36,221 bases of DNA from a virus. Within the stretch, counting starts at the first letter, position 1. The number at the start of each line of letters is the position of its first letter. Shown piece by piece: positions 786-28,220 of this stretch. Both the position numbers and the translations under genes were made by a program. Under the pieces are notes generated by a model. It searched no databases. It saw nothing but the letters and a program-made list of their open reading frames with translations, and was not told the DNA's origin. Location of the stretch: positions 1 through 36,221 of the IMG/VR virus record IMGVR_UViG_3300029775_000009, one strand, 5' to 3'.

Positions 786-1145
786 ATGGACATTAAATCA
801 ATCCAAAATTTAATAATCGATGGCACTGAAATAGCAGAGCAAGCGTTTGTAACATGGGGCTTACAAAGTATTTTGAGTAAAAATTCAGGGTATACGTTAG
901 ATGGTGCATATCATGAAGACCGCGTGGCGCAGAAAGTCAAGCTTACGTATGAATGGCCACAAATTTCCATGCAGCAGAAAAGAAAAATCGTACAGGCATT
1001 AGCGTCTAAGTCCATACACGATATTACCTATTTCGATGTGCTAACAAATGCCCAGCGAACGTCAAAATTCAGAGTGTCCGACCCAGTTATACCTGTAATA
1101 TATGAATCGGCTTCCAATTTTTCTTTGACGTTTGACGAGAATTGA
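786..1145 (+). CDS. Small tail component in the position of the distal tail protein
   Basis: 119-aa ORF with RBS GGAAGCGAG, 13 nt after the tape-measure stop. The call is by position only; it is shorter than typical Dit proteins. Confidence 0.4.
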   Translation: MDIKSIQNLIIDGTEIAEQAFVTWGLQSILSKNSGYTLDGAYHEDRVAQKVKLTYEWPQISMQQKRKIVQALASKSIHDITYFDVLTNAQRTSKFRVSDPVIPVIYESASNFSLTFDEN

Positions 1146-12024: not shown

Positions 12025-12204
12025 TTACTTCTCCCGGATATACTTTTCTGCGAACTCTCTAATAAGAGTATTCACGGTTGTTCCGTTTTCGTATGCTTTC
12101 CAGCGAAACGCTTCCGCAATATCGGCCCGCATTGAAGCACTTATGTGCCCCATATGTTTTGCATCCCAGCGCTGAGACGCCCTCTTTTGTGCTTCACTTT
12201 TCAT
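12025..12204 (-). CDS. Ribbon-helix-helix protein (59 aa, not in the ORF track), paralogue-like of 7173..7382
   Basis: My translation of the minus strand gives MKSEAQKRASQRWDAKHMGHISASMRADIAEAFRWKAYENGTTVNTLIREFAEKYIREK*. RBS AAAGGAGGTG. The layout matches the 7173 protein (K-rich N-terminus, beta-strand, ..A...G.T.N.[LF]I...I.E). Confidence 0.6.
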   Translation of the reverse strand: MKSEAQKRASQRWDAKHMGHISASMRADIAEAFRWKAYENGTTVNTLIREFAEKYIREK

Positions 12205-12347
12205 TTAAGCACCTCCTTTATAACCCTGCAATTCCACGACAGCTGCAATTCTTCCATGCTCGTTCCACACTGCATTGGCAGGAATGGATACACCGCTCCT
12301 GCCGGTGCTGCCGGCTTTTTAATTTTGTACTTTTGCTCTGCCATCAT
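12201..12347 (-). CDS. Possible 48-aa ORF coupled by an ATGA overlap to the RHH gene
   Basis: MMAEQKYKIKKPAAPAGAVYPFLPMQCGTSMEELQLSWNCRVIKEVLK*. Its stop overlaps the RHH ATG. There is no convincing RBS. Confidence 0.25.
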   Translation of the reverse strand: MMAEQKYKIKKPAAPAGAVYPFLPMQCGTSMEELQLSWNCRVIKEVLK

Positions 12348-12405
12348 CGGTGCTGGTGGAGCGGTTCCAGCAGACGCCCTTACGGGCGTTTCGGCTTGTA
12401 CTCCA

Positions 12406-12696
12406 TTATCCCATCTCGTCCTCTTCGACCTTCCGAATCACGTTCCTGTTTTCGTCTACCCATACCGGCGTAAAGTCTTGCAGGTGGTCCTCGTTGAAAT
12501 AGTCCTCCTCAGTTTCCTTTTCTGCTTCTTCGAGTGTCATACCCTCGTCCATAAGGCCCTCAATTTCATACCATAGCGTCCCGTTTTCACCTAGCGCAAA
12601 CTGTTCTTTCAAGTATTTTTTGTCGCTCTCGATGATTTCATCTTGACTAAAAATAACACCAGTATAATTGTTTTCGTACATGATTTCCTTTTTCAT
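12406..12696 (-). CDS. Highly acidic small protein (anti-defence / DNA-mimic candidate)
   Basis: I start it at ATG 12696 (GGAGG at 12709-12705, 8-nt spacing) rather than 12711. It is 96 aa and very rich in E/D (..EEAEKETEEDYFNEDHLQDF..EEDEMG). Confidence 0.55.
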   Translation of the reverse strand: MKKEIMYENNYTGVIFSQDEIIESDKKYLKEQFALGENGTLWYEIEGLMDEGMTLEEAEKETEEDYFNEDHLQDFTPVWVDENRNVIRKVEEDEMG

Positions 12697-12739
12697 TTTT
12701 GTTTCCTCCATTTTTTGTTTATCTCTTGACTACTCTTAT

Positions 12740-21932: not shown

Positions 21933-22083
21933 AATCCCCACAATCCCCACAATCCCCACTGTTTCCGCAATACATACGTGCTATTTATAAGAGATATTTT
22001 TCTAAAATATTTTTCTAAAATATTTCAAAAAATATTTTTCCCTTATAGAGTTTTGGGGAGATTATGTGGGGATTGTGGGGATT
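21933..22083. repeat. Iteron cluster flanking an AT-rich repeat block: candidate replication origin
   Basis: AATCCCCAC occurs three times in perfect tandem (21933-21959). The inverted GTGGGGATT occurs twice in tandem (22066-22083), with degenerate copies at about 22053 and 22151. Between them lies ATATTTTTCTAAA twice (21994-22019) plus more A/T tracts. Confidence 0.6.
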
Positions 22084-22178
22084 TGGCTAAAAAGTCGCAT
22101 AGTAGTGCGGGTTTCAGCGTCCCCACCTATGTGGGTATGCAGTGGAAACAGTGGGGATACACGAAGGAGGTTTATATT

Positions 22179-23690
22179 TTGCATGAATATACATTGCGTG
22201 AATATCAAAAAGAATGTGTTGATTCGATTGTTCGCTCTGGTCCTGGGAAGTGGCTAGTAGTCATGGCAACCGGACTCGGTAAGACAGTAACGTTTGCAAA
22301 CATTCCACGGGATGGACGTACACTTATTCTTTCACACAGACGTGAATTAGTGACACAGCCTAAAAAATATTATGACTGTGATTATGGAATTGAGTTAGGT
22401 TCGCAGCACAGTCACGGTGAACCGGTTGTGTCCGCAAGCGTACAAACCATGGCACACCGCATGGACAAGTTTAGGCCAGATGACTTTGAACGGATTATTG
22501 TTGATGAAGCACATCATTCCGCTGCAAAAAGTTACAAACAGATTTTGAATTATTTTCAGCCAGAACAAATAGTCGGATTTACAGCAACACCTAATCGTTC
22601 CGACTCCGTCCGATTGGATGACGTGTTTCAAGGCATCATATTTGAGCGTGACTTGAAATGGGGAATTCAACAAGGATATTTATCTGATATTTATTGCCGC
22701 CGTGCTGAAATCGGATATGACTTGAGCCACGTAAAAGTTTCCGGAGATGATTATGCCCCTGGAGAACTGGCGGAAGCAATGGACGGCACCGCAGACGCAA
22801 TAGCACAAGCGTACAAGGACATGGCGGTTGGCGCCACACTTATATTTTCCGTGTCTGTTAAGCAGGCAAATGAAATTGCAAAACGGATACCAGGCGCGGC
22901 CGTTGTAAGCGGGAAAACGCCTCCAGTAGAACGTCAAGCGCTTATTGATAAACTAACGAATGGAACCATTCCCTGCCTTGTTAACTGCATGGTTTTTACC
23001 GAGGGCACAGACATTCCACGAGTCGAGACGGTTATTATTGCCAGGCCTACCAAGTCGGATGCATTGTATACACAGATGGTTGGACGCGGGCTGCGGCTGG
23101 CACCTGGTAAGGACAAGCTAAATCTGATTGACTGCGTGGGTGTAACGGGCTCTAGGAGCCTCTGTACGGCTCCGTCTTTATTGGGCATAGATTTATCGCC
23201 CGTGCCAGAAAAGAAGCAGCAGGCGCTCGAAGGGCTATTGTTTGACCTACCAGACAAGGCATCCGAATTGAGCGACTGTCCTGAAAGCTGGATAAGAAAT
23301 GTTGAAATTGTTGATTTATGGGCAAAGACACAGTCATACAACATTCACGGAGTGAATTGGTTTAAGCAGCCTAATGGAGATTTTACATTATCGCTTCCCG
23401 GCGCTACCTATTGCATACCAGCACCAGATGCTTGTGGACAAGTACATTTTCGCAATGGCGGGCCTGTTGTGCCGATGCAGCAGGCGCTTGACCGTGCATT
23501 TCAGCAGCTATGCCGCGACCATATGAGCGAAAAGTACATCTGGGATATATCATCTGCGAAACGCTGGGGAAAACAGCCTGCCAGCGAAAAGCAAATACAA
23601 CTTGTCAGCCGAATGTGTAAAAATTTCGATTGCAGTACTTTAACTAAATTACAAGCAAGTCAGATTTTAAACAGGAGGTTAGCAGGATGA
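22179..23690 (+). CDS. SF2 DEAD/DEAH-box helicase
   Basis: The probable start is TTG 22179, 8 nt after GGAGG (22166-22170). The track's 21978 start would read through the iterons, and ATG 22183 is out of frame. Motif I VVMATGLGKT, motif II VDEAHH and motif III FTATP are present. Confidence 0.75.
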   Translation: MHEYTLREYQKECVDSIVRSGPGKWLVVMATGLGKTVTFANIPRDGRTLILSHRRELVTQPKKYYDCDYGIELGSQHSHGEPVVSASVQTMAHRMDKFRPDDFERIIVDEAHHSAAKSYKQILNYFQPEQIVGFTATPNRSDSVRLDDVFQGIIFERDLKWGIQQGYLSDIYCRRAEIGYDLSHVKVSGDDYAPGELAEAMDGTADAIAQAYKDMAVGATLIFSVSVKQANEIAKRIPGAAVVSGKTPPVERQALIDKLTNGTIPCLVNCMVFTEGTDIPRVETVIIARPTKSDALYTQMVGRGLRLAPGKDKLNLIDCVGVTGSRSLCTAPSLLGIDLSPVPEKKQQALEGLLFDLPDKASELSDCPESWIRNVEIVDLWAKTQSYNIHGVNWFKQPNGDFTLSLPGATYCIPAPDACGQVHFRNGGPVVPMQQALDRAFQQLCRDHMSEKYIWDISSAKRWGKQPASEKQIQLVSRMCKNFDCSTLTKLQASQILNRRLAG

Positions 23691-24112
23691 ACCGTGTGTT
23701 CAAACTCAACCCTATGCAGGAATCATCAATACAGCATGCGATTTTTCTTTGGAGTGAGCAGCCATCAATTCGCAGTCAGTTTCCTGAATTAGCTTTATTG
23801 CATCACATCAAAAACGAAACTGCCTATGCAGGCGCAAAACAGATTGCGATTGATAAAGCGTCCGGAGTTAAAAAAGGTGTACCGGATTTGTCGCTCCCTT
23901 GCCCGCATGGAAATTTTCACGGTTTGTATATAGAGCTTAAAACGCCAAAAGGCAAACCGTCAAAAGAACAACTTTGGTGGATTAACAAATTATCAGAACA
24001 CGGATATTGTGCTTGCATCTGCTATGGATACCAGGAGGCGATAAAATGCGTCGCAAAATATCTAAGCCTGCCGAACCCAAACACGGTCCCAACCAACGGG
24101 CAAAAGAACTGA
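23687..24112 (+). CDS. VRR-NUC domain nuclease
   Basis: GVPDLSL...GLYIELKTPKGKPSKEQLWWINKL fits the PD-(D/E)xK pattern of VRR-NUC. ATGA overlap with the helicase gene. Confidence 0.7.
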   Translation: MNRVFKLNPMQESSIQHAIFLWSEQPSIRSQFPELALLHHIKNETAYAGAKQIAIDKASGVKKGVPDLSLPCPHGNFHGLYIELKTPKGKPSKEQLWWINKLSEHGYCACICYGYQEAIKCVAKYLSLPNPNTVPTNGQKN

Positions 24113-24273: not shown

Positions 24274-24407
24274 CGTCAGAACGCAGAAAAGAAATTGAGT
24301 GCCGTGCGATTCTCACATATGGCGCTCAAATGCGGCGCGACATGGAAACGGCATCACATCAACTCATTGTCCGGTTAAAGCAAATCATGGGAGGCGAATC
24401 GGAATGA
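24270..24407 (+). CDS. Possible 45-aa ORF
   Basis: MTSERRKEIECRAILTYGAQMRRDMETASHQLIVRLKQIMGGESE*. ATGA overlaps at both ends. Confidence 0.35.
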   Translation: MTSERRKEIECRAILTYGAQMRRDMETASHQLIVRLKQIMGGESE

Positions 24408-24763
24408 ATGCGGATTTTGAGAAGCTTCGGAAATACCGCGACATCAAAATGCGGTTACATACATTGCAAACGGAAATTGTTGGAGATACAGCAAAAGATT
24501 ATTCTTCCGGTTATCCGCACTCTATTATGCTCCGTGGAGTCGCCTGTGACGATAGAACGCGGAATGAAGTGACTTTACTGCAAAGTGAGTTAAACGTCTT
24601 AGACGGCCTTGTAGACAGTGTTAAGGATATACGTGCGCGTGACTTGTTAGACAGGCACTATCGCCGTGGAGAACCATGGAAAACAATTTCCGAAAGCACG
24701 GGACGTTCAGAAGAAGCAAACAAGAAATATTTACAAAGATATTTTAAAAATGTATCTGCCTAG
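24404..24763 (+). CDS. Late-gene transcriptional activator candidate (sigma-70 region-4-like HTH; ArpU/RinA/DUF1492-like)
   Basis: I start it at ATG 24404 (GGGAGG at 24388-24393). The C-terminus DLLDRHYRRGEPWKTISESTGRSEEANKKYLQRY looks like a sigma region-4 HTH. It is the last gene before the packaging module. Confidence 0.5.
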   Translation: MNADFEKLRKYRDIKMRLHTLQTEIVGDTAKDYSSGYPHSIMLRGVACDDRTRNEVTLLQSELNVLDGLVDSVKDIRARDLLDRHYRRGEPWKTISESTGRSEEANKKYLQRYFKNVSA

Positions 24764-25447
24764 GTCTTTTTGTCCCTTATGGTATCGTGATACACTAACA
24801 ATAGAGAACATCTAATATCAGAAGTATAAATTTATCTAGTTTACAATTATACTTCTACAAATTCAAGGCTACAAGCTTCTAATAATTCAAGATTACAAGA
24901 GTTAATTTTTCCTCCTTTCATTTTTGGACCGGCTGAAATATGCCGGTTTTATATGCCCGGAATCCGGGTATGTTCATTTTTGCAATCCTCCTTTCACCCG
25001 CCGCGTCCGAACGGCGGGTCTTTATATCCGGGCGGTACGCGCGTGAGCTGGCTGCACCGGTGGATATTTCCTCCTATATATTTTTTGGCAGCCGGAAACA
25101 GACGGCAATGGGTGGTGATGAGCCGCCCACCACATGAGATATGGCATAAGAGTATGCAGCTATACGCGCTGGTGCAATTCCGGTATATCTCTCCAAGGCC
25201 CACGCACAGGGCCTCAAAATAAAAACGGCTGTGAAGAGTCGTTGTGTTGTAATATCTGGGCAGGCAGAGAAATCATAAGTCCTGTCGTTTGACTATTAGG
25301 CCGGTTAAGGGTGACCGGTTTAATATAAAATTTAATTCGCTGGTTTAAAAAAGCCAGAATGCAAAGCAGACTACTGCTCTTGCCGTTTTTTGTCGCTTGC
25401 AGACACCCACTTTTGTCGGGCGTCTGTTTGCGTTATGGGGGCATAAC

Positions 25448-25663
25448 ATGGATGTTGTAAAAGAGCGTGCACAGTTGTACATACGCATATCTGACTTGCT
25501 GGCAAAGCCACGGCGTGACAACAATGACGAGGCAGAACTTGACCGGCTGCAGCGGAAGCTGCGGGACAACCTGATGCGCGTCGGGCGGCCGCCGGGCGGT
25601 GACACTAACCAGCCGGGAGAGACCGGCAAACTTAATCATTCGAGCGTATCGCTTCGGCGGTGA
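25448..25663 (+). CDS. Possible small charged protein upstream of HNH
   Basis: ATG 25448 lies 7 nt after GGGGG. The 71-aa product is MDVVKERAQLYIRISDLLAKPRRDNNDEAELDRLQRKLRDNL... Confidence 0.35.
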   Translation: MDVVKERAQLYIRISDLLAKPRRDNNDEAELDRLQRKLRDNLMRVGRPPGGDTNQPGETGKLNHSSVSLRR

Positions 25664-26001
25664 GCTCTTATTTTGGGGTGATGGATGTGCAGGATTATGC
25701 CAGGAGTTTTTACAAGTCCAGTGCATGGCAGCTATGCCGGGCATCGTATATAGCCGAGCGGCAGAGCGTGGATGGCGGGTTGTGTGAGCGATGCCATCAT
25801 ACTCTCGGGTATATCGTCCATCACAAGGTGGCAATCACTCCAAACAACATCAACGATCCGATGATTACTCTTAATCATGATAATCTGGAGTATCTCTGCA
25901 AGGCTTGCCACGATGAGATACACGGGTACTGTGGAAATCAGAAAGAAAAACCAAGATGCGAGTTCGATGAAAAAGGAAATCCAGTTCCTCGGAGCCGATA
26001 G
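25660..26001 (+). CDS. HNH endonuclease (terminase-associated type)
   Basis: CERCHHTLGYIVHHKVAITPNN...NLEYLCKACHDEIHG is an HNH/zinc motif. It is adjacent to a P27-type TerS. The start is uncertain (GTG 25660 or ATG 25681). Confidence 0.8.
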   Translation: MSSYFGVMDVQDYARSFYKSSAWQLCRASYIAERQSVDGGLCERCHHTLGYIVHHKVAITPNNINDPMITLNHDNLEYLCKACHDEIHGYCGNQKEKPRCEFDEKGNPVPRSR

Positions 26002-26115
26002 CCCCCCTAAAATTTTCCGTGAAAACGCTGCGTGGGGACCGGCGCTGGGGCTCCAAAAAATACGCGCCCTGTTCGCGTGTCCGGTGTAGTTCTTTAGTGG
26101 AAATAAGGTGATTTT

Positions 26116-26493
26116 ATGAAAACATATGCGGATATGGCGAAAGAAGAAATCATTGCCGCCGAGAAACGGAAACTTTCCGGGATTTACTCTCGGCTGGAAT
26201 CCAAAACGAAAAAGTCTGTAAGCTCGCTGATTGACAATGCTGCTTTTATGGCCGCAAGTCTGTGGGAGCTTCAGCGGGACATCAACACGGAAGGCTACAC
26301 CGAGGAATACCACAATGGCGCGAATCAGTCCGGGGTGAAGCGGAGCGCAAAGGTCGATATTTATATCCAGCTTGAAAAAAACTACGCCTCCGTCATCAAA
26401 CAGCTTACCGACCTGCTCCCAAAAGAAGATAAGCTCAAAGAAAAAAAGGATGATGGGTTCGATGGATTTGTCAACGGTCGTGAGGAAACATGA
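26116..26493 (+). CDS. terS: Terminase small subunit (P27 family-like)
   Basis: 125 aa, sitting between HNH and TerL. The motif ..DNAAFMAASLWELQRDINTEGYT..NGANQSGVKRSAKVDIY.. is typical of P27-family small terminases. Confidence 0.7.
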   Translation: MKTYADMAKEEIIAAEKRKLSGIYSRLESKTKKSVSSLIDNAAFMAASLWELQRDINTEGYTEEYHNGANQSGVKRSAKVDIYIQLEKNYASVIKQLTDLLPKEDKLKEKKDDGFDGFVNGREET

Positions 26494-28220
26494 TTCGCTA
26501 TGCCGACAATTACAATCCAATCCGCGAGTATTGGGATAAAATTCAGTCCGGTGAAGAAACCGTCGGTGCAAAAATCCGAAAAGTTTACAAGAAGCTCGCT
26601 TGGGACTTAGACCATCCCGGCGAGTATTTTTATAGCCCGAAGCGGGCGAACCACATCCTTGAGTTTGCCGAAAACTACTGTCACAACTATCAGGGCAAAG
26701 ACGGCGGCAAGCTCGTCCGGCTGGAGCTGTGGGAGAAGGCCATGCTCGCGGCGATATTTGGATTTGTGGATGTTGAAGGTATCCGTAAATACCGCGAAGC
26801 GCTTTTAATCGTCGGCAAGAAAAACGGGAAGTCGCTGCTTGCGTCTGTCGTCGGGGATTATCTTTTGACTGCCGACGGAGAAGCGGGGCCGGAAGTCTAC
26901 GCCGTCGCGACGAAAATGGACCAGGCTAAAAAGATCTGGCTCGCGTCGAAACTGATGGTCAAAAAGTCGCCGGCTCTCCGCAAGCGGGTAAAGGCGCTTG
27001 TCTCCGAACTGTACTGCACCGCGAATGAGGGGATTTTTCGACCGCTCGCGTCGGACAGCAACACGCTCGACGGGCTGAATGTCCATGGGTGCCTGATGGA
27101 TGAAATCCACCAGTGGAAGCAGGGCCGGGCGCTCTATGACATCATGGCGGACGGCACGACGGCCCGCGAGCAACCGCTGATTTTTATTACATCGACAGCA
27201 GGCGTTATCAGGGAGGATATTTACGATGAAAAATATGATGAAGCCACCCGGGTAATAAACGGGTACTTCGACCCGGTCGGGTATCACGACGAACATTTCC
27301 TGCCGTTTATCTACGAGCTGGACAGCCGGAAGGAATGGGTCGACCCGAAATGCTGGAAGAAAGCGAATCCCGGCCTCGGGACGATTAAAAGCCTTGAGCA
27401 GCTCACAGATAAAGTAAACAAGGCGAAAGCGAACCCGGCGCTCGTCAAGAATCTGGTCTGCAAGGAATTTAATATACGCGAGACGTCGTCCGAAGCGTGG
27501 TTGACTTTTGAGCAGCTCAACAATCCCGATACGTTCCGGATTGACCGGAAGGCCGAAAAGCTGCTGTGGACGCACGACGGAAGCACCCGGGCTCTCCCTC
27601 TCCCGAAGTATGGAATCGGCGGCGCCGACCTGTCCAGCACCACGGACCTGACTGCCGCAAAGGTGATTTTTATGGTTCCTGGGTGTCCGAATGTTTTTGT
27701 GCTCCAGATGTACTGGCTTCCGGAGGAACTGCTGGAACAGCGGACCAAAGAGGATAAAATCCCCTATGACCTATGGGCAGAACAGGGCTTGCTCCGCACG
27801 ACGCCCGGGAACAAGGTCCACGCGAAGTACGTCACGCAATGGTTTTTGGAAGTCCAGAACAAGCTCGACGTGTACATTCCGTGGGTCGGATATGACGCCT
27901 GGTCCGCGACATACTGGGTCGAGGAGATGAAGGGCGAGTTTGGCAAGGAGAGCATGATAGCGGTCCACCAGGGCAAGCAGACGCTTTCCGCGCCGATGAA
28001 GCAGCTCGGCGCTGATTTGAGCAGCAAACTTGTGATTTACAATAATAACCCGATCGACAAGTGGTGCCTCGCAAACACCGCGATTGACATCGACAAAAAC
28101 GACAATATCCAGCCAATCAAAACGAGCAGTCCGCGAAAAAGAATTGACGGGCTTGCTTGTTTACTTGATGCGTACACGGTGCTGCAGGATAAACTCGGCG
28201 AGTACCAGACGATGATTTGA
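26490..28220 (+). CDS. terL: Terminase large subunit
   Basis: 576 aa with Walker A-like VGKKNGKS and Walker B-like CLMDEIH. The gene order is HK97-like. Confidence 0.85.
   Translation: MIRYADNYNPIREYWDKIQSGEETVGAKIRKVYKKLAWDLDHPGEYFYSPKRANHILEFAENYCHNYQGKDGGKLVRLELWEKAMLAAIFGFVDVEGIRKYREALLIVGKKNGKSLLASVVGDYLLTADGEAGPEVYAVATKMDQAKKIWLASKLMVKKSPALRKRVKALVSELYCTANEGIFRPLASDSNTLDGLNVHGCLMDEIHQWKQGRALYDIMADGTTAREQPLIFITSTAGVIREDIYDEKYDEATRVINGYFDPVGYHDEHFLPFIYELDSRKEWVDPKCWKKANPGLGTIKSLEQLTDKVNKAKANPALVKNLVCKEFNIRETSSEAWLTFEQLNNPDTFRIDRKAEKLLWTHDGSTRALPLPKYGIGGADLSSTTDLTAAKVIFMVPGCPNVFVLQMYWLPEELLEQRTKEDKIPYDLWAEQGLLRTTPGNKVHAKYVTQWFLEVQNKLDVYIPWVGYDAWSATYWVEEMKGEFGKESMIAVHQGKQTLSAPMKQLGADLSSKLVIYNNNPIDKWCLANTAIDIDKNDNIQPIKTSSPRKRIDGLACLLDAYTVLQDKLGEYQTMI

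Follow-up and report, generated by a model that had tools for sequence, protein, structure and literature searches.

The 36,221-nucleotide stretch of viral DNA analysed here (IMG/VR record IMGVR_UViG_3300029775_000009, hereafter the window) looks like the genome of a temperate Bacillota siphovirus. At positions 24764-25447 it contains a gene-free gap, placed between the gene of a 119-amino-acid (119-aa) protein that resembles late regulators and the genes of the packaging module. This gap is a mosaic of independently assorting cassettes of small terminator-type hairpins and not one large ornate RNA; it is a variant of a known phage control region and represents no new class of RNA. The explanation favoured here, to which a probability of roughly 55% is given, is that of an expanded modular control region between the gene of a sigma-region-4-like late regulator (Ltr type) and the late operon.

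An initial annotation of the same sequence had offered four options for the gap: a large ornate RNA, a series of terminators read through by antitermination, a part of the cos/packaging recognition site, and tiny peptides encoded on the minus strand. The terminator series ahead of the late genes is the best supported of the four. The hairpins are of the terminator type, specific to the + strand, followed by U-rich tails, maintained by compensatory changes in their stems, free in their loops, and located downstream of a putative promoter that adjoins the direct repeats of the regulator; the read-through that this option also called for would be a further, predicted step. The underlying observation stands, and the other three options were not borne out.

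In the proposed mechanism, the regulator-specific repeats and the -10 element that come directly after the regulator gene (24766-24796) would drive late transcription. The transcript would start at about 24801-24803 with an AU-rich, unstructured leader of ~125 nucleotides (nt), followed by ~520 nt of + strand hairpins, to give a leader of ~645 nt. Five or six of these hairpins (T1-T6), some of them flanked by pyrimidine tracts, would act as intrinsic terminators. They would block the read-through from the early operon as well as unmodified transcripts from the late promoter, and keep the packaging and lysis genes silent. Productive expression of the late genes (packaging, head, tail and lysis) would then require read-through of the terminators, similar to the action of the lambda Q protein at PR'-tR'. 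Some of the hairpins of the window may also be terminators left by small RNA cargo, or part of such cargo.

Hairpins, strand polarity and cassette structure

The initial annotation described the gap as free of open reading frames (ORFs) and dense in hairpins, and both descriptions hold. The ORFs of 40-94 aa that can be read in the gap overlap each other and have no Pfam or PHROG match, so that the first description is correct in the meaningful sense, and no genes were called in the homologous stretches of related contigs. The seven hairpins and the three TCCTCCT motifs previously listed are all present, none of them further than 1-2 nt from where they had been placed. The hairpin coordinates were refined by folding (Table 1). 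Three hairpins come in addition to those listed before, namely the AU hairpin at 24820-24856, the hairpin at 25340-25357 and T5 at 25361-25383.

The density of the hairpins was compared with that of 500 dinucleotide shuffles. GC-rich hairpins, defined by a stem of at least 6 base pairs (bp) with at least 4 GC pairs, number 6 in the gap versus 0.88±0.87 in the shuffles (0/500 reach 6), and no other 684-nt stretch of the window is as dense in them. The + strand has 5 terminator-like sites, defined as a hairpin plus at least 5 U in 9 nt, and the - strand has 1, compared with 0.59±0.75 in the shuffles (0/500 reach 5). T1, T2, T3 and T4 belong to these sites, and the fifth on the + strand is a weak hairpin at 25225-25242. 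The minimum free energy (MFE) of the gap has z-scores of -6.9 (+ strand) and -3.5 (- strand). This excess folding energy is explained by local hairpins: each hairpin block has a z-score between -3.5 and -4.3, and the leader at 24800-24930 one of -0.5. The motif CCTCC occurs in 3 copies within 160 nt of the gap, versus 20 in the whole 36 kb.

Relatives of the gap were gathered via the 119-aa protein, via the first late ORF (71 aa) together with the HNH gene, and via two conserved DNA boxes, and ~25 distinct related gaps (given below by their locus numbers, L001 and so on) were compared. In a blastn search with the gap, none of 50,697 isolated phage genomes was matched.

The comparison indicates that the stems are maintained while their sequences change. 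In T1, two pairs covary in L049 and L001 (A-U to G-C and C-G to A-U), the loop is unchanged and a G.U pair is conserved. The stem of T2 is rebuilt in L001 (GCCCGG/CCGGGU to GCCCAU/AUGGGU) along with a 4-nt indel, and in L155 the tail of T2 follows a different hairpin. The hairpin at 25340-25357 has undergone a compensatory U-A to C-G change in L064, L065 and L069. At the position of T4, the relatives have a different hairpin (CAGCAGYC...GRCUGCU plus AUUUUUAUA), in which three pairs covary and the loop is flipped. Not every hairpin adds to this picture. The 3' arm of T6 differs in L064, L065 and L069 with one mismatch kept, so that its changes are non-compensatory, and the pairs of the small hairpin in the GGGCAGGC box are invariant and hence neutral as to structure.

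The loops behave differently from the stems. The loop of T3 is reverse-complemented between the window (24996-25019) and L064 (2043-2066) with the stem unchanged, and the same holds for the loop of the last hairpin in L054 compared with L068 and L056. These are small inversions within palindromes. Since loops flip between close relatives, their sequence is unconstrained; and since, in addition, single hairpins are gained and lost, only the stem and the tail seem to be constrained, as expected for terminators. On the - strand, the G.U pairs conserved in T1, T2 and the last hairpin would read as A.C mismatches.

Base-pair covariation is seen only within individual hairpins. Two candidates for pairing over longer distances were rejected. 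The pairing of 25087-25108 with 25380-25400/25421-25432 is specific to the window and conserved in no relative, and the 5-bp closing helix proposed by RNAalifold (GAACA/UGUUC, 24806-24810 with 24972-24976) is mostly invariant and breaks in 2 of the 7 sequences. A second consensus fold gave local hairpins only.

The different parts of the gap have different relatives. The cassette 24788-24985, which holds the putative late promoter, the AU-rich leader and the two tandem terminator-like hairpins, shares 88-94% identity with L055, L057-L060 and L062 and ~70% with L001, L047 and L049. The following cassette, 24986-25447, is 96% identical to L064, where it stands behind a different regulator gene (175 aa) and its own TATAAT; in L155, the same cassette follows yet another upstream sequence. 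L067 contains 25026-25289 without the T3 hairpin, followed by the standard last hairpin of other relatives, and in L151-L153 T1 and T2 are joined to a divergent 121-aa regulator with different direct repeats. The homologues of 25086-25447 available to this comparison are near-identical copies only (at least 94% identity). The junctions between the cassettes coincide with pyrimidine tracts (CCTCCTTT), and the leader cassettes precede at least four different terminase types.

Two short boxes recur among the relatives. The GGCAGCCGGAAACAGACGGCAA box is kept, together with a hairpin of different sequence, in L001, L047, L049, L055, L060, L061, L062 and L151, and in those eight relatives box and hairpin always precede a tRNA-like element. 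The GGGCAGGC box is found just upstream of the last hairpin in L022, L054, L056, L057, L061, L066, L067 and L068; four other pattern matches for it (L156, L159, L160 and L162) proved to be unrelated sequence and were discarded.

The putative late promoter and its regulator

In the relatives, three direct repeats in ~10-nt phase come right after the regulator gene and are followed by a -10 element (TGATATAAT or TATGAT) and then by ATGAATAATAGAGA. The repeats change with the regulator variant (ATGTAAC x3, ATGTGCTACT x3, ATGTYAC or GTCCGTTTT x3), and the -10 element and ATGAATAATAGAGA remain unchanged. The repeats are located at about 690-740 in L057, 670-715 in L022, 1655-1690 in L001 and 800-840 in L151. 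Four distinct sets of triple repeats, each with its own regulator variant, abut the -10 element and the conserved AATAGAGA start region, and the region equivalent to 24800-24830 of the window is also kept behind three other repeat/regulator types. Exact-pattern matches for this start region in L012 and L013 are chance matches in coding DNA and were left aside.

On these sequence grounds the late promoter of the window can be placed at 24788-24796, with a predicted start near 24801-24803. T1 and T2 lie 125-180 nt downstream of the putative start and the first late ORF 645 nt downstream. The arrangement of the promoter followed by T1/T2 is kept in at least 10 distinct relatives, and a scan for other promoter-like sites on the + strand up to the first late ORF found none. 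In the short-gap relatives L054 and L002, the last hairpin is only ~20 nt away from the first late ORF, and late transcripts must therefore cross it.

The 119-aa protein appears to be sigma-region-4-like and of the Ltr type, a weak assignment in which family membership rests on weak matches. Fifteen homologues were found, two of them with a precomputed PF05263 match. Matches to DUF1492 (2) and Sigma70_r4_2 (2) also occur among the homologues, all of them weak, and sigma-70/ECF models of NCBIfam match 14 of the 15 members with a best E of 8e-5, all far below the cut-offs of the models. Sigma region 4 ranks at the top of a fold search of the protein in which no match is significant. The protein of the window itself has no Pfam match and matches PHROG 36 ('transcriptional regulator') weakly (E = 0.003), and tblastn against the isolated phage genomes gave nothing. 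As regards Q, the Pfam, NCBIfam and PHROG searches returned no Q-family match, and a Q-engaged complex (entry 6jnx) appeared in the fold search only at E = 4.3.

Several points weigh against a promoter-and-terminator control region. The -10 element of the window itself is degenerate (TACACT) and its direct repeats are unclear: in the repeat segment only GTCTTTTT/GTCCCTT and a palindrome are seen. T1/T2 are missing in L002 and L054, and T3 is missing in L067; these hairpins are therefore dispensable for late regulation as such, and the array is not obligatory. A stricter terminator scan accepts only T2 and T3 inside the gap, and its count over 24300-25900 (3) is not clearly above that of shuffles (1.5±1.4). 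For this reason 'terminator-like' is to be taken as a judgement on form and not on activity. The U tracts behind the hairpins are short or interrupted (UUUAUAU), and no antiterminator was identified. In the phages phi11 and 80alpha, RinA-dependent transcription was mapped to a start only 23 bp before terS, at a distance of more than 155 bp from where RinA binds (PMC3152322). As this start adjoins terS, the true late start in the window could lie downstream of most hairpins. A conserved TGnTATTTT that overlaps the last hairpin in the relatives is a possible promoter; the window is without this motif, and a second promoter near its first late ORF, considered by analogy with phi11, was rejected.

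As to the surroundings, the tail and lysis genes of the window are followed by a minus-strand block, the replication genes, the 119-aa gene and the gap. The 71-aa ORF has no family match. It is conserved as the first late ORF among relatives that between them have four different terminase types; the copies in L002 and L022 are shortened or decayed. The large terminase shares 60-67% identity with its counterparts in Terrisporobacter, Caldibacillus and Bacillus phages. The minus-strand block contains a match to the type II hammerhead ribozyme (12332-12396, - strand; 39 bits versus a gathering score of 37, E = 1e-4, full-length model), flanked by two minus-strand ORFs, one of 101 aa (12406-12711) and a small one that starts near 12203.

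Table 1. Features of the gap and of its surroundings (window coordinates, except for the last row, which gives the coordinates in each related locus).
Feature	Position	Strand	Remarks
Helicase	21978-23690		Replication genes
VRR-NUC	23687-24112		Replication genes
119-aa late-regulator-like gene	24404-24763	+	C-terminal half appears sigma-70 region-4-like; just upstream of the gap
Gene-free gap (region studied)	24764-25447		Between the 119-aa gene and the 71-aa ORF
Putative regulator-binding segment and -10 element	24766-24796	+	GTCTTTTT/GTCCCTT; palindrome GTATC-GT-GATAC
Extended -10-like element	24788-24796	+	TGATACACT
Conserved region, predicted to be transcribed first	24800-24830	+	AATAGAGAAC-N4-AATATCAGAAG; (nearly) invariant in 7 aligned relatives
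AU hairpin, 10 bp	24820-24856	+	In an otherwise unstructured leader; pairs mostly invariant; mismatches in L049, L001, L062
Tandem 24-nt direct repeat	24852-24899	+	CTTCTAcAAATTCAAGgcTACAAG x2; single copy in L001, L049, L062
Pyrimidine (CU) tract 1	24906-24926	+	With UCCUCCUUUCA; degenerate (CUUCCUUUCUUUCA) in L049, L001
T1, terminator-like hairpin	24926-24956	+	Stem 24926-24949, loop UGAAAUAU, then UUUAUAU
T2, terminator-like hairpin	24951-24982	+	Stem 24951-24973, then UCAUUUUUG
CU box 2 and T3, 8-bp GC-rich hairpin	24986-25027	+	Hairpin 24996-25019, then CUUUAUAU; z = -3.5
CU box 3, conserved box and hairpin	25067-25133	+	Conserved box GGCAGCCGGAAACAGACGGCAA (25087-25108); hairpin 25109-25133
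Candidate degenerate tRNA-derived minihelix	25136-25195	+	Weak assignment
Hairpin AGGCCC-N7-GGGCCU	25196-25214	+	Without U tail; identical in L064, L067 and hence no covariation information
Conserved box with small hairpin	25253-25289	+	GGGCAGGC...AUAAGUCCUGUC; hairpin with conserved G.U pair
T4, 14-bp hairpin	25294-25335	+	Hairpin 25294-25325, then AU-rich tail; z = -4.3
Hairpin CUGGUUU-AAAA-AAGCCAG	25340-25357	+	
T5, bulged 9-bp hairpin	25361-25392	+	Hairpin 25361-25383, then CGUUUUUUG, U6 tract; kept in L064, L065, L069
T6, hairpin	25394-25432	+	CAGACACCC...GGGCGUCUG with flanking pairs, then UUUGCGUUAU
71-aa ORF, first late ORF	25448-25663	+	Begins MDVVKERAQLYIRISDLLAKPRR; 3' boundary of the leader
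HNH endonuclease	25681-26001		
Small terminase-like gene (TerS)	26116-26493		
Large terminase	26490-28220		
Truncated tRNA derivatives in relatives	L001 1918-1987; L049 4113-4181; L062 1179-1247; L047 3823-3881; L060 958-1016; L061 831-903; L151 about 1020-1090		

RNA cargo and other explanations of the gap

Between the regulator and the packaging genes, the relatives of the window carry additional elements. L022 (940-1019) and L056 (4483-4562) have a tRNA in the same gap (Rfam tRNA, 53.5 and 46.4 bits). ARAGORN assigns to it the four-base anticodon 'acac', which is read as an 8-nt loop, and its variable region has ~12 nt; this tRNA could be quadruplet-decoding or non-decoding. Truncated derivatives of the same tRNA, with the acceptor stem (GCACAGU/ACUGUGC) and the T arm (GCAGG-UUCGAGU-CCUGC), without the anticodon arm and often with an encoded CCA, occur in seven further loci (Table 1). 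They always come after the box GGCAGCCGGAAWUAGACGGCAA and a short hairpin, and their form suggests selection for an acceptor/T-arm minihelix. L022 has, at about 1090-1180, a second tRNA- or tmRNA-like terminus (GGGGAAUGAAAAGGUUUCGA...ACGAGUUCGAUUCUCGUAUUCUCCACC) that is called by neither ARAGORN nor Rfam. Protein genes are also found in this place: a Tad2-like gene in L060 (1264-1686; PF11195, a family named after an anti-Thoeris protein) and a DUF6275 gene in L044 (4411-4692, equal to L001 2212-2493). The regulator-to-packaging gap of the relatives is a hotspot for accessory-gene cargo.

In the window itself, the segment 25136-25195 is a weak candidate for a degenerate minihelix derived from a tRNA. 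An acceptor-like stem of 7-8 bp is combined with a possible T-stem of 5 bp, which has a 7-nt loop, and with an encoded U-CCA. The segment occupies the position of the tRNA-like element in the relatives, and in L067 a G.U pair of the proposed T-stem has become A-U, in keeping with the pairing. The arrangement is unique in the gap and arises, with NCCA, in 0.9% of shuffles. On the other hand, ARAGORN found no gene in the window, RF00005 and a custom covariance model of the relatives' tRNA-like element (R1) had no match in the segment at E<=10, and the MFE fold retains only the outer stem (z = -1.5). R1 is dominated by near-invariant sequence; its miss therefore weakens the claim of homology and does not exclude it.

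The cargo of the relatives leads to a different explanation of the gap, which is considered unlikely and yet deserves more weight than the remaining alternatives. The gap could hold one or more independent genes of small non-coding RNAs as cargo, the other hairpins being the terminators of such cassettes. The main candidate would be an RNA of ~150-180 nt, starting at the extended -10 promoter (~24801) and ending in the double terminator T1/T2, and the minihelix at 25136-25195 would be the second. Within the former, the tract UCCUCCUUUCA is identical to the anti-Shine-Dalgarno tail of 16S rRNA and would pair with ribosome-binding sites. Several features fit such a gene. The consensus extended -10 (TGATATAAT) of most relatives could fire without an activator; an unstructured body, a terminator-adjacent seed and a double terminator are the typical architecture of a small RNA gene; CCTCC is enriched, with its 3 copies in 160 nt; the gap of the relatives is a cargo hotspot (tRNA, tRNA-like elements, Tad2-like and DUF6275 genes); and the cassettes move between phages with different regulators. 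However, the CCUCC core has decayed to CUUCCUUUCUUUCA in L049 and L001. What is kept is consequently a CU-rich tract and not a strict CCUCC or a ribosome-binding site. A bare anti-Shine-Dalgarno seed is moreover unspecific, and no extended target was found in the window. The promoter abuts the regulator-specific repeats, as expected of the late promoter itself, the -10 of the window is degenerate, and the minihelix was found by no covariance model. Mimicry of a CRISPR repeat by T3 was also considered and rejected, its sole support being a match to CRISPR-DR8 (17 bits, E = 1.7).

Far less probable is that the AGGAGG motifs on the minus strand are the ribosome-binding sites of tiny peptides (24982-24926, MNIPGFRAYKTGIFQPVQK; and 24928-24854), the hairpins then being coding sequence or attenuators. 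The minus strand has three perfect Shine-Dalgarno sequences of the Firmicute type (GAAAGGAGG), each followed after 4-10 nt by ATGAAC in the window or in relatives; 7 relatives show GTTCATTTTTG without change, and a + strand CCTCC at other places of the window signals minus-strand genes. Against the peptides stands the way in which the sequence changes. The 4-nt indel of L001 breaks the frame and truncates the first peptide to the 10 unrelated residues MNNTHVWMGI, and compensatory changes rebuild the hairpin at the same time. The four T1 changes of L049 make two perfect compensatory pairs, yet three of the four are non-synonymous. In the window the second peptide has ATT where ATG would stand, in L001 and L062 it has been lost, and its variation between L055 and L060 is non-synonymous only. 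The G.U pairs favour the + strand, and a scan found no convincing promoter on the minus strand.

A single large ornate RNA of the ROOL, GOLLD, HEARO or raiA class, spanning most of 24764-25447, is very improbable. The region is long and gene-free, and its + strand folds much better than shuffles (z = -6.9); a long gene-free stretch of a Bacillota phage with many GC-rich hairpins resembles the setting of these RNAs, and tRNA genes, which are found near GOLLD, occur here in relatives. The excess stability is nevertheless accounted for by local hairpins. Consensus folds are local as well, apart from one 5-bp helix (GAACA/UGUUC) that is broken in 2/7, and the long-range complementarity between 25087-25108 and 25380-25400 is window-specific. 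The cmscan search against Rfam that the initial annotation had proposed left ROOL, GOLLD, HEARO and raiA unmatched, both at the gathering score and at E<=10. Across the whole window, the only match at the gathering score is the hammerhead, outside the gap; over 24500-25700 at E<=10, only sub-threshold matches to terminator-like small RNAs were obtained (at most 22 bits); and in 12 related loci Rfam gave nothing but tRNA. Unlike the large RNAs, the gap has no conserved multi-helix architecture and consists of cassettes that separate in other phages. The initial annotation had itself regarded a protein gene at this place in homologous phages as evidence against a large RNA. The mosaic structure, together with the protein genes and tRNAs inserted in the gap of relatives, refutes this reading on those terms.

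There is equally little to be said for the gap as a part of the cos/pac site recognized by the terminase: its position immediately before the packaging module and its wealth of repeats and hairpins would fit, and two viral contigs from different samples (L065 and L069) start at the equivalent of 25310, but three related viral contigs (L071, L073 and L075) end at about 26040, between HNH and TerS, in the GC-rich segment GCGTGGGGACCGGCGCTGGGGCTCC (about 26030-26050), none ends inside 24764-25300, and the same leader cassettes stand before four terminase types and are hence not terminase-specific. Position 25310 is in the loop of the palindromic hairpin T4, where an assembly break is at least as likely as a genome end; the two starts may reflect such a break at a palindrome whose loop flips in the population. 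In HNH-dependent phages, cos usually lies between the HNH gene and TerS. The contig ends place the cos site probably near 26040, outside the gap.

Comparison with known late control systems

The control region proposed here can be compared with three types of phage regulatory systems. The put sites of HK022 and EAR are cis-acting antiterminator RNAs, which are compact structured elements. The gap resembles them in having a conserved, putatively transcribed segment directly downstream of the predicted promoter and upstream of the terminator-like hairpins. In contrast to them, the conserved leader (24800-24930) is AU-rich, not significantly structured (z = -0.5) and has no Rfam match. A literature search on antitermination or tRNA-like minihelices in the late leaders of Gram-positive phages found nothing relevant.

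The late control of lambdoid phages is based on the Q gene, the promoter PR' and the terminator tR' (6S RNA), and in Stx phages the interval from PR' to the late genes contains tRNA genes and morons. The gap is similar in its layout: the regulator gene is immediately upstream of the putative late promoter, the terminator-type hairpins 150-200 nt downstream would yield a short abortive RNA, the relatives have tRNA(-like) elements and accessory genes between the promoter and the late genes, and the expression of the late genes would logically depend on processive read-through. The window has a -10-like pause element (TAATAT, 24813-24818) that is kept in only part of the relatives. The difference lies in the regulator, which is sigma-region-4-like here and not a Q protein.

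A bolder extension of this comparison, put forward as speculation and doubtful as a whole, is that Ltr-type activators would load on RNA polymerase at the repeat-adjacent promoter and make the polymerase resistant to terminators in a Q-like manner. The protected leader would then serve as a bay for RNA cargo, with minihelices as possible decoys of toxins. Minihelices with an encoded CCA, such as those of the relatives and perhaps the segment 25136-25195 of the window, could act as decoys for defence toxins that attack the 3' ends of tRNAs, beside the Tad2-like anti-defence gene. Q-like action of Ltr proteins, if true, would explain the distance of more than 155 bp between the RinA site and late transcription in phi11. 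To our knowledge, antitermination has been demonstrated for no Ltr protein.

If the gap is a control region of the proposed type, late control in a widespread class of Gram-positive temperate phages would not be simple promoter activation. It would consist of an activator-dependent promoter and a stack of terminators, which would imply an unrecognised read-through step analogous to that of lambda Q. The regulator-to-terminase gap would also be a recombination-prone cargo site, useful for the mining of small RNAs, tRNA derivatives and anti-defence genes. If the hairpins are merely leaky insulators, the region is ordinary, and its main value is to warn that phage DNA without genes and dense in hairpins is not necessarily a large ornate RNA.

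The closest counterpart is the control region of the Ltr-type activators (RinA, ArpU, LtrA/Sigma70_r4, LtrB/DUF1492 and LtrC), for which the arrangement of repeats and promoter and an exchangeable region downstream of the regulator repeats have been described (PMC3753634); in phi11, a terminator is known to lie between rinA and terS (PMC3152322). The gap differs from these regions in its size, ~685 nt with 9-10 hairpins in place of a single terminator, and in its order, since a consensus -10 abuts the repeats with the terminator-like hairpins downstream of it, whereas phi11 and 80alpha start 23 bp before terS. It also hosts, in the relatives, RNA and protein cargo. In both, the regulator gene is located directly upstream of the packaging genes (PMC3152322, PMC3753634), short direct repeats that change with the regulator (clear here in the relatives) lie immediately distal to it, a factor-independent terminator, here terminator-like in form, is found inside the gap with a single late operon downstream, and the sequence beyond the repeats is exchangeable between phages with different regulators.

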